The notes: generated from the letters alone by a model not told the origin. Numbered from the stretch's first letter, positions 7,420 to 63,998 are shown. The stretch is DNA of 64,000 nt from an uncultured Acidobacteriota bacterium (GCA_963793695.1 CAWCBB010000016.1:268603-332602); one strand, 5' to 3'. A program made the numbers and translations.

Positions 7420-7429
7420 CGCAGGGGGC

Positions 7430-7510
<81 letters not shown>

Positions 7511-7518
7511 AGTTCGAG

Positions 7519-7935
7519 CTAATCCAGAGGGCGGAGGTCCCGGCGCGCCTTGCGCTTCGGCGCCGCCTCCTCCTGCTTCCTTGCCTGCCGCGAGAGATAG
7601 CGAATCAACCCGTTCAAGAGTTGCCCCACGCGAGCAGCATCGTCATCGAGTCGCTTGGCGGATGCTGGCTCGATGAACCTGAGCCGTCGCGCCATTTCGA
7701 GCTGTGTTTCTAACTCGAGCAGAGAACCTCGAGCACGAAAGACGAACTGCCGCTGGTCCCGGTACGAAAATCGCCCCATCGCTTCGGCGACATTCGACGG
7801 GATCGAGACGGCGGCTGACCTCATCTGATCCGAGAGGGCACGCGCCTCGCGATTCGGGAAAGACCGGACGGTCTCGAAGACGCAAATCGAGAAATCGATG
7901 GCTGCCTGCCAAGCTTTCAAGTCTCGGTAGTTCAT
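7519..7935 (-). CDS. Four helix bundle protein (23S rRNA IVS protein / Avd-like family)
   Basis: MNYRDLKAWQAA, LSDQMRSAAVSIPSNVAEAMGR, ARGSLLELETQLE match the family consensus; start taken at MNY rather than 8022. Confidence 0.92.
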   Translation of the reverse strand: MNYRDLKAWQAAIDFSICVFETVRSFPNREARALSDQMRSAAVSIPSNVAEAMGRFSYRDQRQFVFRARGSLLELETQLEMARRLRFIEPASAKRLDDDAARVGQLLNGLIRYLSRQARKQEEAAPKRKARRDLRPLD

Positions 7936-8026
7936 TATCTGTCGATGCCGAGGCAAGCGACCGACAGCATTCGGGTGGGGCCATGGATTGTACCTCGGCT
8001 TGCGACCTACTCGTGACAGCAAACGC

Positions 8027-8112
8027 GGAGAACGGAGAACGGAGAACGCAGAACGCAGAACGCAAAACGGGGAACGGAGAAACGGGGAACGAGAACGGAG
8101 ACGGAGAACGGC
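8027..8112. repeat. Tandem heptamer array (GGAGAAC)n, right inverted arm of the cassette
   Basis: GGAGAAC/GCAGAAC/GGGGAAC units, reverse complement of the left arm; ends at the stop codon at 8113. Confidence 0.9.
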
Positions 8113-19045: not shown

Positions 19046-19084
19046 ACTACTTCCCTCCTACTTCCTACTTCCTACTTACAACTG
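19046..19084. repeat. Heptamer array (CTACTTC)n directly after the CsgG-like gene stop
   Basis: actacttc cctc ctacttc ctacttc ctactta. Confidence 0.65.
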
Positions 19085-24907: not shown

Positions 24908-24974
24908 CGGCTTTCTCTTGAGGTTGACGGCCTCGCCGGGAAAAAGGATGCGGGAGCGACGTTTGTTCCATCTC

Positions 24975-25344
24975 GACCTCAGACCTCAGACCTCAGACCT
25001 CAGGCCTCAGACCTCAGGCCTCAGGCTACGCAGGCAATGCAGAATGCAGAATGCAGAATGAAATCGCCTTCATGTCGGTGGCGACCGGAGCGGAGAGCGG
25101 CGCTTCGCACCGCACTCCAAAGAGGCGAATCTCGCGGCTGTACCGCTGGCAAGGACGTGATGAGCCGAGAGGCGCTGCCCTCAGTACGAGCGTGCGCCTG
25201 GCGTTTTGGAGTGCGGCGCCCGCAGGCGCCGCTTTCATGTTCCGGGCTTTCTGCTTCGATTCAACATCCGAGGCCTGAGGCCTGAGGCCTGAGGCCTGGG
25301 GCCTGGGGTCTGGGGTCTGGGGTCTGGAGTCTGCGGTCTGGGCT
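24975..25344. repeat. Composite intergenic element: (GACCTCA)n arm, (AATGCAG)n array, TTTGGAGTGCG-type REP doublet, inverted (TGAGGCC/TGGGGTC)n arm
   Basis: Arms at 24975-25026 and 25270-25344; AATGCAG x3 at about 25036-25059; REPs AGAGCGGCG..CCGCACTCCAAA (25094-25121) and TTTGGAGTGCGGCG..CGCCGCTTT (25205-25235). Confidence 0.85.
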
Positions 25345-27637: not shown

Positions 27638-27710
27638 CGATCGCAGATCGCAGATCGCGGATTGCAGATTGCAGATTGAAAGTCCGGAATTGAGCTGCGA
27701 TCCGCAATCG
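27638..27710. repeat. Heptamer array (GATCGCA/GATTGCA)n with a short inverted partner
   Basis: gatcgca gatcgca gatcgcg gattgca gattgca gattg ... tgcgatccgcaatc. Confidence 0.7.
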
Positions 27711-35274: not shown

Positions 35275-35437
35275 CCGTTCTCCGCTCTCCGTTTGCCGTT
35301 CTCCGTTCTCCCGTTCGCTTCGCCTTCTCACGGTCCCATGTACATGCTGGACGAATAGCGGTTTCTCGGCAAGGGAACGGCGGCCAGAACGGAGAACGGA
35401 GAACGGACGAACGGACAACGGAGAACGCTGCGCGCCG
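35275..35437. repeat. Inverted heptamer arrays (GTTCTCC)n...(GGAGAAC)n around a non-coding core of about 60 nt between convergent stops
   Basis: ccgttctccgctctccgtttgccgttctccgttctcc ... cagaacggagaacggagaacggacgaacggacaacggagaacg; same unit as 7430-8112. Confidence 0.85.
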
Positions 35438-46416: not shown

Positions 46417-46631
46417 CATTTCATTTCAATTGCAGATTGGCGATTGCATCGCGCGAAATCGAGGATGCCGTTTGACGGGGTCGTGACCTGCGACGGAGAG
46501 GGCGTCCCGCTCCGGCCCCGATCACCCAATTCCTCGATCTTCAATCTTCAATCTGCGATCAACGCGCCCCATTCTGCCATGGGACGTGGGGGCTTTCCGA
46601 TGGCGTACAATGACGTTCCTGTCCTTTTCCT

Positions 46632-47935: not shown

Positions 47936-49045
47936 ATGAGCGAGGACCTCACCATCCAGGGGACGCTCGCCGAAGCGACGATCCCGGACCTCTGCCGCTC
48001 GCTGATCCGGAGCGGGGAGACCGCGATCGTGGCACTCGAAGCGATCGGTCGGCACGACAGCATCTACTTCCGCGAGGGAAAGATCATCTACGCGGCGAGC
48101 TCCGATCCCGACCTGGGGCTCGCCGAGGTGCTTCTTCAACGGGGAGAGATCGGCGTCCAGGAGTACCGCCGCGCGATCGAGAGCGTCAGCGGCACGCAGC
48201 GCATCGGGTCGGTCCTCTGCGACCTCGGATATCTCAAGACGAGTGAGCTGATGCGCGCGATCGAGAGGCAGGTGTGCGACATCGTCACGCACGCCGTCTC
48301 GTTCCGGAGCGGCAGCTATCTCATCGAGTTCACGGGAGATTTCGATCGCGACGTCCCGACCCTGTCGATCCAGACCGAGCGCCTGCTCATGGACGCGATC
48401 GAGCGGATCGAGTACTGGTCCCTCATCTCCCGCGGGGTCGGATCGATGCAGCGGCTCGTCCGGAAGGAATCGACGGCGGACTCCCGCATGTACCACGTCG
48501 AGCTGACCGAGGAGGAAGCGTTTCTTCTCGACCTCCTCGCCGAGCCCCAGAGCGTCGGAGCGATCTGCGCCCGCAGCTACCTCTCGAACTTCCGGACCTG
48601 CCGTCTCATCTGGGCGCTCCTCGTCGCGAACCTCGTCGAGGATCAGGAGGGGGAGGAGCACGCAGCGCGCCGGACCGAGGTGCGCACGGAGATGGAGCTG
48701 GAATCGCTCGTCGAGAGCTACAACGCAGCGTTCCAGTCGATCTTCGCCGTCGTTTTCCAGAAGATCGGCGACGGCGCCTACGACTTCATCGACCGGGTCG
48801 TGGCCCACCTCTCGCCCGAAACCCTGCCCTACCTCATCGGGATCAACGTGACGAACGAAGGGCGCGTCGACTTCGACCAGTTGCTCAACAACCTGATCTC
48901 GTCCGGCGCCCGCGACCGCGGCGTGGTCGTCGACAACGTCCTCAACGAGCTCCTCTACGGCTGGATTTTCGAGACCCGCGCGGAGTTCGATTCCGATCTC
49001 GACGACGCGATCAATCCGATCGTCGCGGGGCTGAGGGGGAAGTAG
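47936..49045 (+). CDS. DUF4388 domain protein with extended C-terminal region
   Basis: IQGTLAEATIPDL, IYFREGKIIYA.S, LAEVLL..G.I, IG.VL..LG.L. Confidence 0.8.
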   Translation: MSEDLTIQGTLAEATIPDLCRSLIRSGETAIVALEAIGRHDSIYFREGKIIYAASSDPDLGLAEVLLQRGEIGVQEYRRAIESVSGTQRIGSVLCDLGYLKTSELMRAIERQVCDIVTHAVSFRSGSYLIEFTGDFDRDVPTLSIQTERLLMDAIERIEYWSLISRGVGSMQRLVRKESTADSRMYHVELTEEEAFLLDLLAEPQSVGAICARSYLSNFRTCRLIWALLVANLVEDQEGEEHAARRTEVRTEMELESLVESYNAAFQSIFAVVFQKIGDGAYDFIDRVVAHLSPETLPYLIGINVTNEGRVDFDQLLNNLISSGARDRGVVVDNVLNELLYGWIFETRAEFDSDLDDAINPIVAGLRGK

Positions 49046-49097
49046 GAAGGAGGAAGTGGGGGCTCGCCCCCCTGCTGCTTTACAATGCCCCCCGGCC

Positions 49098-52401: not shown

Positions 52402-52478
52402 CAGCCCCAGCCCCCAGCCCCAGCCCCCAGCCCCAGCCCCAGCCCAGCCCCCGCCCCCGCCCCAGCCCCCAGCCCCAG
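52402..52478. repeat. Hexamer-like C-rich array (CCCCAG)n
   Basis: cagccccagcccccagccccagcccccagccccagccccagcccagcccccgcccccgccccagcccccagccccag. Confidence 0.8.
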
Positions 52479-52488
52479 ACTCTAGCCC

Positions 52489-52738
52489 CAATGGCGTTAA
52501 CTTAAGCAATGGTTCGGGCGACGACGTCATCCCGAGCGTAGCGAGGGATCGGGCGGGAGTGGTGCGCGTGACGCCGCACCAAGCAGGGCACAGGCTCGAA
52601 ATTCGCTGGCGACCCCGAAGCGAATGCCGATCCTGCTGCCCTGCTCGGGCGCCGCGTTCTTGCGCAGCCCCCGCCCAGATCCCTCGCTACGCTCGGGATG
52701 ACAGCTCCGGGGCATCTCGCCTTAAGTTAACGCCATTG
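52489..52738. mobile_element. 250-bp MITE with 18-bp perfect TIRs and 12-bp target-site duplication (IS4-family-like ends)
   Basis: TIR CAATGGCGTTAACTTAAG at 52489-52506, exact reverse complement at 52721-52738; direct repeat AGACTCTAGCCC at 52477-52488 and 52739-52750; no transposase. Confidence 0.88.
52526..52702. repeat. CGTC-type REP doublet inside the MITE
   Basis: GTCATCCCGAGCGTAGCGAGGGATC at 52526-52550 and exact reverse complement at 52678-52702. Confidence 0.88.
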
Positions 52739-61119: not shown

Positions 61120-61932
61120 CTAATGATTTCTGTCAGTTCCGCAGACCCGACGCCATCCCTGCGAACCGCCTCTGCGATCTCCAGCCCCAGCCGCCGGTAG
61201 AGCTCCGCGCGGTCGGGATCCGCGGCGGCGAGAGCGTCGAGATGGCGCTGGATCGTCGCTTTCTCCGCCCGGAATACGGGGCCGGTGAACCGCTCGCGCG
61301 AGCTTTCCCAGTTGTCGACGGCCGATCGCGCGAGAGCGGCGAGCGGCCGCTTTCATCGACGCTCCCCGGAGGCCGCAGCGCCCGAAGAGATCCGCGGCGG
61401 CCTCCAGGAGCGCGGCGACTCCGTTCGATCCGAGGACCGCGCTCGCGTGATAGAGCGGCTTGGAGGCCGGGTCGATTTCGGCGAAGGCGCCTCCCAGGCA
61501 GCTCGCGATCTCCCGCGCCGGCTCGCGCGTGGACGGCGCCCCCTCGAAGACGAAGAGCGTTCCCGTCAGGTCGACCGGCTCGCCGAGGGGCGGCAGCGAG
61601 CGGAGGGGGTGGAGCGAGAATGCGCGAGCCCCTTCGCCGAAGACGGCGCTCGAGACGGAACCGCTGGGGTGAAAGAGGAGCGTGGCCGGTGCGGCCGCGG
61701 CGGCGATCCCGGATGCGAGCGCCTCGAGCGAGGCGTCGGGAAGCGCGAGCAGGAGGAGATCGGACGAGGCGATCAGCTCCTCCTGCGGGAGGGAGGGGAC
61801 GCCGAGCCGCGCCGGAAGATCGCTCGGCGATCCGGCGCGGAGGGTCACGCCGGCGAGCGGCCGTCCCGCTCTCCGCCAGCCGCTTCCAAACGCCCATGCG
61901 GCGCGCCCGCCGCCCACGATTCCGAGCTTCAT
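61120..61932 (-). CDS. Rossmann-like plus DUF2520 domain protein; C-terminus frameshifted
   Basis: GIVGGG, LPD, FHPSGS, SLHPL, KPLYHA.AV..SN, FTGP..RG in a shifted frame. Confidence 0.85.
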   Translation of the reverse strand: MKLGIVGGGRAAWAFGSGWRRAGRPLAGVTLRAGSPSDLPARLGVPSLPQEELIASSDLLLLALPDASLEALASGIAAAAAPATLLFHPSGSVSSAVFGEGARAFSLHPLRSLPPLGEPVDLTGTLFVFEGAPSTREPAREIASCLGGAFAEIDPASKPLYHASAVLGSNGVAALLEAAADLFGRCGLRGASMKAAARRSRAIGRRQLGKLARAVHRPRIPGGESDDPAPSRRSRRRGSRPRGALPAAGAGDRRGGSQGWRRVCGTDRNH

Positions 61933-61946
61933 CGACCCCAGGCCGC

Positions 61947-61953
61947 TATCATA
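61947..61953. promoter_or_regulatory. Overlapping back-to-back -10 hexamers (TATCAT on +, TATGAT on -) in a 26-bp divergent gap
   Basis: gcTATCATAgc; + ATG 6 nt downstream, - ATG 15 nt downstream; no SD. Confidence 0.55.
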
Positions 61954-61958
61954 GCTTC

Positions 61959-62322
61959 ATGCGTACCCTCGCGATCGTCCTCGCGGCCGCGGCGCTGGCG
62001 CTTCCGGCGGCGAGGGCCGCCGCCGCGCCGGCGGCGGTCTGCCGCGGGGACCTCGACCCGTACGGGGCGGCCTCTGCCACTATCTCCGGGGCGACCTCGA
62101 GGGGGCGCGCGCGGCTTCGAGGCGGTCGTCGCGGAGGACGAGCCTCGCCCGGAGACGTTGAAGGCGCGCTACTTTCTCGCGCGTTCGCTCATGAAACTGC
62201 GGCGATGGGAGGAGGCGTCGGGAGAGCTGATCAAAATTTATTCGCTCTCGCCGTCCTTCTATAAAGAGTGGAGCTGCGATTTTCTCCTCGGGGAAGCGCG
62301 GCGCGGGATGGGGTTGGAGTGA
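61959..62322 (+). CDS. Small secreted TPR-like protein; frameshifted
   Basis: Signal peptide MRTLAIVLAAAALALPAARA; ARYFLARSLMKL.RWEEA..EL. Confidence 0.65.
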
Positions 62323-62327
62323 GCCGA

Positions 62328-62432
62328 CATTGCAGATTGCAGAATGCAGATTGCAGATTGAGGGGAGAGTTCGTGCGCGGCGTTGCGGCCGCGCCGTGCC
62401 TTCAATCTGCAATCTGCGATCTGCAATCTGCA
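62328..62432. repeat. Inverted heptamer arrays (ATTGCAG)n...(CAATCTG)n around a GC hairpin core of about 40 nt
   Basis: cattgcagattgcagaatgcagattgcagattg ... caatctgcaatctgcgatctgcaatctgcattc. Confidence 0.88.
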
Positions 62433-62459
62433 TTCGGGGGCAAGGGGAGGATCACGCTG

Positions 62460-63998
62460 ATGCCATCCTCCTCCTTCGAACAGAAGCGCAAGCTCCTCCA
62501 GCTCGAGGCGCTCTACGACGTGGGCCGCGCGCTCAACACGCTGCGCCCGGAAGAGGACCTGCTCGAGGAGCTGCTGCTTCGGGCGATCGCCCTGGCCGAC
62601 GCTTCCTTCGGCTTCGCGGTCGCCGTCGATCAATCGCTGGCGATCCAGCACCTCTACACCGTCGGCGTCGAGCGGGAAGCGCTCGGGGAGCAGTTGATGG
62701 GGAACGAGCCGATGCGCCGCGCCCTCGCGATGCGGACGCCGGTCTCGTCCGAGGCGGGGCTGCTGGTCGCGGGGCAGGAGGGAACGGTCCTCATCGCCCC
62801 GATGCTCGCGGCGGAAACCGCGATCGGAGCCCTCGCCGTCGGCGGAAAAGAGCAGAGAGGGGCCAAGGCGGGATCCTTCGACGAAGACGACCTCCGCTTC
62901 CTCGGCTCGCTCGCCGCGATCGGCGCGGCGGCGATCGACAACACGCGCAATTTCCACCGGCTCGAGCTCGTCCGCGCCTCGCTCGAGGACGAGAACCGCT
63001 CGCTCAAGCAGCGGATGCTGCGCGAGTACAGCGACCGGCTCATGATCGGCGACTCCGCGGCGATGCAGCGCGTGATCGATCTCGTCGCCCGCGTCGCGGG
63101 AAGCCACGCGAACGTGATCATTCGCGGCGAGTCGGGCACCGGCAAGGAGATGGTCGCGCGGCTCATCCACGGCAACTCGCCGCGCCGCGACAAACCGTTC
63201 GTCGCGATCAACTGCGCCGCCCTCCCCGAGACTCTCCTCGAGTCCGAGCTGTTCGGCATCGAGCGCGGCGTCGCGACCGGGGTCGAAGCGCGCCCCGGCA
63301 AGTTCGAGATCGCCAGCGGCGGGACGGTCTTCCTCGACGAGATCGGCGACATCCCCGTCACGCTCCAGGCCAAGCTTCTCCGCGTCCTGCAGGAGCGCGA
63401 GATCGAGAAGCTCGGCGGCCGGCGCCGCATCCCCGTCGACGTCCGGATCCTCGCCGCCACCCACCGCCCGCTCGAGAAGATGATCGAGTCGGCCGAGTTC
63501 CGCCAGGACCTCTACTACCGCCTTCGGGTGGTCGAGATCTTCCTCCCGCCGCTCCGCGATCGGAAGGAGGACATTCCCAAGCTCGTCCGCTACTTCATCG
63601 AAAAATACGGGGCGCGGGAAGGGCTCGCCGGCGTCCGGATCTCCCAGCAGGCGCTCCAGAAGCTGATGCGCTACCCGTTTCCCGGGAACGTGCGGGAGCT
63701 CGAGAACCTCATCGAGGGCGCGCTCGCGGTGACGGTCGACCCGGTCATCGACGCGGACGAGCTCCTCCTCCCGGAAGGGGGGAAGGGAAAGGGAGGGGGC
63801 GACCTGGCGGCGGATTTTCCGGAGTTGCGGGAGCTCGAGCGGCGGTACATGACGCTCGTTCTCGAACAGACCGGGGGCAACATCACGGAAGCGGCCAGAA
63901 TTCTGGGGGTCGATCGAAAGACTCTCTATCGGAAGAAAGAGCTGTTGTCCCAGAATGCCACAGATGGCCCAAAATGGGATCATGGTGTAACTAACTAA
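62460..63998 (+). CDS. GAF plus sigma54-interaction AAA+ plus Fis-type HTH transcriptional regulator
   Basis: GESGTGKE, AINCAALPE.LLESELFG, FLDEIG, LQAKLLRVLQE, FRQDLYYRL, GNVRELEN, AAR.LG..R.TLYRK; GAFTGA replaced by GVATGV. Confidence 0.93.
   Translation: MPSSSFEQKRKLLQLEALYDVGRALNTLRPEEDLLEELLLRAIALADASFGFAVAVDQSLAIQHLYTVGVEREALGEQLMGNEPMRRALAMRTPVSSEAGLLVAGQEGTVLIAPMLAAETAIGALAVGGKEQRGAKAGSFDEDDLRFLGSLAAIGAAAIDNTRNFHRLELVRASLEDENRSLKQRMLREYSDRLMIGDSAAMQRVIDLVARVAGSHANVIIRGESGTGKEMVARLIHGNSPRRDKPFVAINCAALPETLLESELFGIERGVATGVEARPGKFEIASGGTVFLDEIGDIPVTLQAKLLRVLQEREIEKLGGRRRIPVDVRILAATHRPLEKMIESAEFRQDLYYRLRVVEIFLPPLRDRKEDIPKLVRYFIEKYGAREGLAGVRISQQALQKLMRYPFPGNVRELENLIEGALAVTVDPVIDADELLLPEGGKGKGGGDLAADFPELRELERRYMTLVLEQTGGNITEAARILGVDRKTLYRKKELLSQNATDGPKWDHGVTN

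Follow-up and report, generated by a model that had tools for sequence, protein, structure and literature searches.

A heptamer-armed intergenic hairpin in an uncultured Acidobacteriota bacterium, one of many convergent heptamer pairs in its genome

Heptamers are over-represented among the long simple-sequence repeats of bacteria, and to our knowledge both bacterial heptamer repeats and the intervening sequences of bacterial rRNA have stood without explanation for decades. Among the intergenic repeats that come closest in layout, the STRR sequences of cyanobacteria are tandem heptamers with several unit types per genome, while REP/BIME and REPIN sequences are abundant palindromes located behind stop codons, able to stabilise the upstream mRNA and arranged as doublets of fixed orientation. 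Convergent pairs of heptamer arrays have been recorded in Xanthomonas (GGGAATC) and Nostoc (GGGGAYT), where 70-75 pairs per genome, mostly of about four units, lie in spacers between aligned genes near stop or start codons, are transcribed and capable of forming stem-loops, and vary in unit between related species (Rehm et al., 2015; PMC4692102); the STRR heptamers of Calothrix are cited in the same work (PMC4692102). Similarly, paired sites in Geobacter metallireducens, built of TCTCCGTS[Y] (three units), MTYCTGA (five units) or GGGACCG (four units), were annotated as putative binding sites of global regulators (Aklujkar et al., 2009; PMC2700814). The intervening sequences (IVS) of 23S rRNA in Coxiella burnetii and Leptospira, finally, occur in PF05635-bearing and ORF-less forms; that of C. 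burnetii has an S23p ORF and an inverted-repeat stem that is cut by RNase III, and at the site of cleavage it carries tandem GACAGAT heptamers varying from strain to strain (PMC4990558).

The window analysed here is the whole stretch of 64,000 nt taken from the genome of an uncultured, soil-type Acidobacteriota bacterium (the focal genome), and the element flagged in it is a 105-base hairpin of which both arms are runs of a 7-base repeat. The locus is composed as follows.

61285-62322, + strand: upstream TPR-like gene, with weak TPR_16/ANAPC3 matches
62320-62322, + strand: TGA stop codon of the TPR-like gene; the stem starts 8-9 nt downstream
62329-62360, + strand: 5' arm, (ATTGCAG)x4.6 with 92% matches (TRF); units ATTGCAG ATTGCAG AATGCAG ATTGCAG ATTG(A)
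62361-62402, + strand: core or loop, 42 nt between the arms
62375-62394, + strand: inner GC hairpin within the core, GCGCGGC-GTTGCG-GCCGCGC
62403-62432, + strand: 3' arm, (CAATCTG)x4.3 with 91% matches (TRF); units (T)CAAT CTGCAAT CTGCGAT CTGCAAT CTGCATT
62331-62433, + strand: entire predicted stem-loop; stem of about 45 bp, interrupted by a single internal mismatch
62446-62462, + strand: GGAGG ribosome-binding site and ATG of the regulator
ATG at 62460, + strand: downstream regulator with GAF, sigma-54-interaction and HTH_8 profile domains

The original prediction had described reverse-complementary arms of four units each, enclosing some 40 nt with a hairpin of their own, between co-directional genes and upstream of a sigma54-type regulator, and TRF, the sequence itself and the profile domains of the flanking genes agree with it on every one of these points. 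The 3' arm is the reverse complement of the 5' arm but has variant units of its own; the 5' arm begins with A and ends in ATTG, as is typical of the ATTGCAG family. Four further pairs (CCGA/UCGG) beyond the arrays extend the predicted stem. Folding of the transcript, which had been suggested along with the prediction, gave a very stable stem on both strands of 62315-62445: -82.9 kcal/mol for the + strand (z = -9.2, with 0 of 200 shuffles as good) and -73.2 kcal/mol for the - strand (z = -9.8). The core, which folds at -21.8 kcal/mol, holds no ORF in its 42 nt and occurs once in the focal genome, with no second match. In the Rfam search, nothing at the locus reached the gathering threshold and no rRNA was found; the best hit, to a plant miRNA-precursor model whose gathering score of 137 compares with the 33 bits obtained, is merely a match to a generic long hairpin. 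A pattern scan for sigma-70 promoters had no hit at the hairpin. Neither strand has a T-run behind the stem, and a rho-independent terminator was rejected since the U-tract is lacking and the terminator scan had no hit there. The inner GC hairpin had been counted as part of a shared architecture, which is correct for this locus but not for the class, where cores are in general no more stable than their shuffled controls (median z -0.37; z below -2 in 16%). It was rejected as a general feature, and also as a pre-existing terminator, on the grounds that cores show no unusual structure and the spacers of the closest relatives measure only 15-22 nt.

Compared with the described systems, the focal locus is an ordinary member of a recorded kind of repeat, the convergent heptamer pairs. 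As in Xanthomonas and Nostoc, its class consists of tandem heptamers of about four units, in inverted pairs, dispersed as intergenic copies near gene ends. There, however, one G-rich unit dominates and has been read as a G-quadruplex former, whereas the focal genome has about 43 units, mostly without G-tracts; ATTGCAG has no G-runs and is incapable of forming a G-quadruplex, a feature that only the GGGNATC subclass possesses. Arrays in the focal genome are as a rule paired, unlike those in Xanthomonas and Nostoc. The description of those two genera lacks family-specific polarity, a fixed arm-end phase and a link to PF05635. Xanthomonas is the source both of the pentameric S23p crystal structure and of the 70-75 GGGAATC pairs per genome. 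The Geobacter sites likewise form families of three to five tandem 7-9-mers in opposite-strand pairs at variable distance, and their TCTCCGT is a rotation of CGTTCTC, the commonest unit in the focal genome; polarity, origin and gene cargo are absent from their description. With the 23S rRNA IVS the focal element shares terminal inverted repeats that form a long predicted stem, but the IVS sit in helix 25 or 45 and their excision by RNase III has been shown, whereas the focal element lies between protein genes, lacks an ORF and is a predicted substrate only. The comparison with STRR drawn in the original prediction is apt in that these, too, are intergenic heptamers of several types within one genome; they belong to another phylum and are mostly single arrays rather than obligatory inverted pairs. 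REPs differ in being unique palindromic units of 20-40 nt instead of tandem heptamers, and while a RAYT gene is flanked by its own REPs, the focal genome has no Y1 gene bracketed by arrays in such a manner. Membership among MITEs failed on unrelated cores and flanks and on the lack of a target-site duplication. The focal locus alone adds nothing new, but its class constrains any mechanism, and what the present analysis adds is the phasing of arm ends, the polarity of sister units, genome-private unit families and the history of one orthologous spacer.

The assembly of the focal genome comprises 4.46 Mb with 66.9% GC and is 68% complete. Both the excess of period 7 and the inverted pairing beyond chance, which had been proposed as checks, are evident in it. 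Under a strict criterion identical for every period, periods 6, 7, 8 and 9 accounted for 40, 298, 33 and 18 arrays, respectively, making period 7 some 7-9 times commoner than period 6 or 8; TRF returned 355 arrays of period 7, 194 of period 14 and 109 of period 21. The commonest units are AACGGAG (71 arrays), AATCTGC, the focal unit (32), AAAATGC (30) and AAGTAGG (24). Neighbouring arrays of the same family are inverted in 160 cases and direct in 27, and lone arms are numerous. Gene-less hairpins number 107, only four of them intragenic according to a crude gene caller, and the class occupies more than 100 spacers of the focal genome.

The remaining coordinates named in the original prediction were all verified. 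Together with two further loci, the arrays elsewhere in the 64-kb window are:

27639-27681, + strand: related arm, (GATCGCA)3(GATTGCA)3, its partner short and degenerate
46428-46449 with 46535-46560, + strand: degenerate ATTGCAG...CAATCTG pair around an 85-nt core
25034-25063, + strand: AATGCAG x4 array within a composite locus (24973-25342); sister family whose unit differs from ATTGCAG by one step
19052-19083: CCTACTT array
49037-49060: degenerate AAGTAGG array
35286-35410: hairpin without a gene, CGTTCTC family, flanked by convergent genes
7429-8111: gene-bearing form, (CGTTCTC)n, PF05635 gene (7609-7926, - strand), (CGGAGAA)n

Of some 61 loci of the ATTGCAG family, about 24 are paired, and every close pair reads 5'-(ATTGCAG)n ... 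(CTGCAAT)n-3', the reverse order never being found. Polarity is near-absolute in the other large families as well (35:0, 28:0, 15:0, 12:0, 9:0 and 7:0), the least strict being the AACATTC family with 10:2. Arm ends are equally regular: ATTGCAG arms start with A (or G-A) in 23/30 cases (p 6e-6) and stop at ATT(G) in 24/30 (p 1e-7), and the focal arms follow this phase. The CTCCGTT, AAAATGC and AATGCAG families are phased to the same degree, with p down to 2e-34; overall, four of the five families tested have a fixed arm-end phase, with p from 1e-4 to 2e-34. Yet the cores between such arms are mutually unrelated, the flanks have no common sequence, and no target-site duplication was found around the copies. 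The family is also confined in its distribution, with 82 pattern hits in the focal genome, six in one relative (G001) and none in 39 others, and has been amplified in the focal lineage only.

Arms of constant polarity with constant ends are reminiscent of terminal inverted repeats, and together with the lineage-specific amplification they recall a non-autonomous transposable element of the MITE or REPIN kind, mobilised whole by a RAYT or IS200-type Y1 enzyme that recognises the hairpin. Matches to the Y1 transposase family (PF01797) number 11 in the focal genome; none of them lies between arrays, a lone short array was seen close to just one of them, and the MITE-like module described below does not bracket any of them. 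Since, moreover, the copies share neither a core, nor terminal sequence beyond the repeat, nor a target-site duplication, and the two arms of a pair differ widely in unit number, we regard transposition of this kind as very improbable.

The relation between families is informative about how units change. Families one base apart in the focal genome always have the same polarity (8:0, where 0.9 neighbour pairs would be expected for random units), it being noted that the eight cases are not fully independent as some families co-detect mixed arrays. Such mixed arrays are common, for example AATGCAA with AATGCAG, and one-step sister units combined with mixed arrays are the signature of concerted evolution. 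We infer that the many heptamers descend, with divergence, from each other: once a unit has acquired a point change, this would spread along its array and across both arms, by slippage or conversion, with the consequence that the unit sequence drifts fast whereas the period of 7 nt and the layout pass on unchanged. Because slippage keeps the period, descent from heptamer-armed ancestors combined with concerted evolution is the simplest explanation of the conserved period. The original view that the heptamers are unrelated and that only the period is conserved holds for the shared architecture and the period-7 excess, but not for the units, which are related stepwise. A pattern of conserved period and unconserved sequence can come from inheritance and concerted evolution, and period alone is poor ground for inferring a measuring enzyme. 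An enzyme that measures 7 nt is not required, and occasional 8- to 10-mers among the members show that the period is able to shift.

Pure descent alone, on the other hand, does not explain one unit at about 60 loci with unrelated cores. As these loci share unit, polarity and arm grammar, a constraint or copying process acting across loci is implied. To this extent the earlier proposal of a common enzyme or templating process is upheld in that something does act across loci, while its 7-nt-measuring enzyme is unneeded and was not found. In its most explicit form, such a process would be an enzyme that repeatedly copies a short, genome-specific template, in the manner of telomerase, onto the two 3' ends left by a break, for instance a cleaved hairpin tip. 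After rejoining, this would yield 5'-(U)n ... (rcU)n-3', where U is the unit and rcU its reverse complement, with fixed polarity, independent arm lengths, no target duplication and filler cores. The common unit, polarity and end phase of about 60 loci with unrelated cores, the nearly uncorrelated lengths of left and right arms (rho 0.17), the lack of target-site duplications and the genome-specific unit vocabulary all agree with it. Repeated breakage of loops would also lead to layered palindromes, and nested layers of different families do exist: some cores contain nested arrays of different heptamers, and layered palindromes are present at C4:386905 and in the window at 24973-25342. Because of these layered palindromes, hairpin loops are suggested as preferred landing sites for new arrays. 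In addition, four-helix-bundle proteins of the Avd type, to which we return below, are cofactors of reverse transcriptases in diversity-generating retroelements, which is established knowledge. But a candidate enzyme was not found, neither of the two reverse-transcriptase-like genes of the focal genome lying near arrays or PF05635 genes; one-base sister families and mixed arrays fit mutation and homogenisation without any template; and some members are 8- to 10-mers, and many arms stand alone. We consider templated synthesis doubtful and distinctly unlikely.

Layered palindromes were also seen in the relative G001, at L229 (G001:C80:110-400) and L231 (G001:C130:21560-21800), each with outer arms (GAGGCTN)n...(AGCCTCT)n, inner arms (GAGAGAC)n...(GTCTCTC)n and a lone central array of the ATTGCAG type.

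The gene-bearing form in the window encloses a gene of PF05635, the S23p or '23S rRNA intervening-sequence protein' family, a small Avd-like four-helix bundle. In the focal genome, inverted heptamer arrays enclose five of the seven PF05635 loci from both sides, against a chance expectation of 0.4%, and every one of the five has its own unit (AGGGGCT, CGTTCTC, GAATGTT, AAACCAG and GCTGATT). All 26 genera of the bacterial family carry between one and eight PF05635 genes. When the 20 genes with the highest scores in 14 other genera were examined, 17 proved to be bracketed, 15 of them by heptamer arms, with units that are nearly all different. Across phyla (Planctomycetota, Alphaproteobacteria, Myxococcota, Gemmatimonadota, Chloroflexota, Verrucomicrobiota and others), 21/39 full-length PF05635 loci had a gene-spanning inverted repeat above the null maximum, and the best arm period was 7 in 20 of these 21; bracketing overall amounts to 38/60. 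Cassettes share units only where protein identity is at least 60% (mean unit distance 0.86), and below that level units are randomised (about 3.4); intermediate pairs of cassettes differ by one to three changes that are present in all units of both arms. A tight co-constraint of the unit with the protein clade was only weakly supported (rho -0.12, p 0.03) and was not adopted.

On this evidence we favour, though with clear reserve, the reading that the focal locus is a gene-less derivative of IVS-like PF05635 cassettes which would form an RNA stem and in which the period has been kept by descent and concerted evolution. An intact PF05635 gene with ATTGCAG arms was not found in the 68%-complete assembly. 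The nearest candidate is a frameshifted pseudogene between ATTGCTG arms. It occurs twice, at C9:6450-7200 and C9:10150-10900, the two copies mirroring each other as an inverted duplication, and in either copy three arrays flank one side and a single array the other. It is a decaying cassette, and its unit differs by one step from that of the ATTGCAG family.

The same proteins invite a different account, in which the arrays are protein-binding sites, either of a global regulator or of the homopentameric PF05635 protein with about one heptamer per subunit, so that recognition holds the unit constant and the footprint of the protein sets the period. The PF05635 protein of the window matches PDB 2GSC, that is Xanthomonas XCC0516 with five chains (E = 1e-15), whose structure is a pentameric toroid (PMC4990558). 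Most commonly a paired arm comprises 4-5 units (163/264), to be compared with four in Xanthomonas and three to five in Geobacter; about 60 loci retain their unit though the cores have diverged, and every cassette has a unit of its own. Protein similarity, however, predicts the unit only at 60% identity or above (rho -0.12), several abundant families have no cognate gene in the focal assembly, and the complementary second arm is unexplained by simple binding. We hold this account to be quite improbable. A bolder variant, which we think decidedly unlikely, combines binding with synthesis: gene-less hairpins would be the non-autonomous partners of PF05635 cassettes, and the Avd-like homopentamer would read runs of about five cognate heptamers, one per subunit, thereby setting the period, and would install or renew the arms with a host polymerase or nuclease, both at hairpin tips and behind stop codons. 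If true, this would account at once for the heptamer-repeat excess of many bacteria, for rRNA intervening sequences and for what a large orphan protein family does.

Whichever process is at work, it has to accommodate fixed polarity, defined arm ends, unrelated cores and the lack of target duplication, as well as stepwise unit change that keeps polarity, genome-private families, recurrent occupancy of a spacer and an association with PF05635 across phyla that is almost always at period 7.

The recurrent occupancy became apparent from the same spacer in related genomes (G, genomes; L, mgL or metagenome loci). The spacer is bare in G023, G011, G001 and L140, and the closest genera retain both genes; it measures 15 nt in G023, 22 nt in G011, 21 nt in G001 and about 70 nt in G010, where no repeat is present either. 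In eight of about 30 lineages (G014, G002, G015, G018, G009, L139, L141 and L142) it is occupied by different 7- or 8-mers:

G014: AAACCAG
G002: GGYATGA, with the stop codon within the first unit
G015: AACGCAG
G018: AGTGGTC
mgL142: AGGCAGA
G009 and mgL141: 8-mer TGGGTTRC
mgL139: 8-mer CGCGGGTT

At a genome-wide occupancy of about 4%, the probability of finding at least five of 26 other genomes occupied is 0.003. In a tree of the regulator, the focal genome groups with bare genera. G015 (GCAGAAC) and L142 (GCAGAAG), whose units are one step apart, fall in one well-supported clade that also holds G018, with a different unit, and G020, with none, while G009 and L141, both with the 8-mer, adjoin the bare L140. 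The suggested comparison of units at orthologous loci has thus revealed recurrent occupancy by differing 7- and 8-mers, with one clade in which units are a single step apart. Unit similarity at the site is marginal in statistical terms, with a mean rotation distance of 2.93 against 3.46 for random draws from the pool of observed units (P = 0.04). The right arm of G015 mixes two units, and a unit replacement is thus caught midway. The G009 element spans exactly from stop to start, and comparison of G009 (filled) with L140 (empty) disclosed no target duplication.

In our reading, the spacer is a preferred home for heptamer hairpins, and inheritance with in-place turnover of units, loss and fresh gain all happen there. 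That the closest genera are bare, with 15-22 nt, means that the hairpin was either gained in the focal lineage or lost in the bare ones; a lineage-specific gain is the simplest account because the unit family is private to the focal genome. Among metagenome contigs no closer relatives were found, the best full-length orthologues being only 61-65% identical.

The regulator proteins of L028 (G009), L141 and L140 are near-identical and their spacers very different: in L140 the TPR and regulator genes overlap (TAGTG), and the G009/L141 hairpin measures roughly 200 nt, (GTTGCTAG)~5 ... (YAACCCAG)~16, with unequal arms that are only 82% complementary.

As to what the hairpin may do, it occupies a 137-nt spacer between the co-directional TPR-like gene, whose product has a C-terminus (...GEARRGMGLE*) that aligns with orthologues, and the GAF/sigma-54 activator. 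If the TPR gene is transcribed, the arms would, as in rRNA intervening sequences, pair into an RNA stem of about 45 bp right after the stop codon. By the same analogy, this stem would be a good substrate of RNase III, the gene for which (rnc) was found in the focal genome, and it could also serve as a 3'-end stabiliser or insulator and as a barrier to 3' exonucleases. It would then part the upstream message from that of the sigma-54 activator; a ribosome-binding site belonging to the activator itself lies 13 nt past the stem. We therefore propose, still by analogy, that the focal RNA stem is probably an RNase III or stability element. A strand-asymmetry test for selection at the RNA level indicated a trend only, the sense strand being more stable in 26/43 loci (p = 0.22); G.U pairs numbered 169 in sense folds and 108 in antisense folds.

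The non-significant strand bias is compatible with the hairpins being a functionless by-product that is tolerated in spacers and has no role for the neighbouring genes. The closest genera would fit such a by-product too, in that they are bare at the site with both genes intact, and so would the finding that hairpins occur in every spacer type roughly in proportion to background. But the focal spacer is occupied far above the background of about 4%, arms are near-perfect while cores vary freely, and the hairpins lie tight behind stop codons, the distance to an inward-pointing stop codon having a median of 17 nt with 45% within 15 nt; it should be noted that these gene-context statistics are approximate, as they come from a crude gene caller with a coding fraction of 0.74 that missed the TPR gene itself. 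Absence of any function is in our opinion unlikely, and we retain the RNA stem derived from IVS-like cassettes as the preferred reading.

Some minor observations concern other repeats and folds in the window. A MITE-like repeat, which ends in ...TGTCATCCCGAGCGTAGCGAGGGATCTGGGCGG... and usually forms inverted pairs 110-150 nt apart, is present at 52526-52550 and 52668-52703 (C16:321128 and C16:321270), and has 199 hits at about 100 loci genome-wide. A module of about 50 nt that recurs in seven heptamer-hairpin cores is a copy of this repeat; as a shared-core sign of transposition it was rejected on the ground that it belongs to a separate repeat, and enrichment of the repeat near heptamer arrays was not seen (24/199). 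Beside one copy of the module lies a (CAGCCC)x14 hexamer/13-mer array (52402-52490). The composite locus at 24973-25342 is nested, with (GACCTCA)x7 and (AATGCAG)x4 on its left side and (GGCCTGG/GGTCTGG) arrays about 200 nt away on its right; it combines one palindrome with two families, the AATGCAG arm being unpartnered. Directly after the focal stem, finally, a second small hairpin is predicted within 62434-62480, in which the Shine-Dalgarno sequence GGAGGAU (62446-62452) pairs with codons 2-4 of the regulator, AUCCUCC (62466-62472), and the AUG is placed in the loop; according to this folding model, it could provide translational control of the sigma-54 activator.
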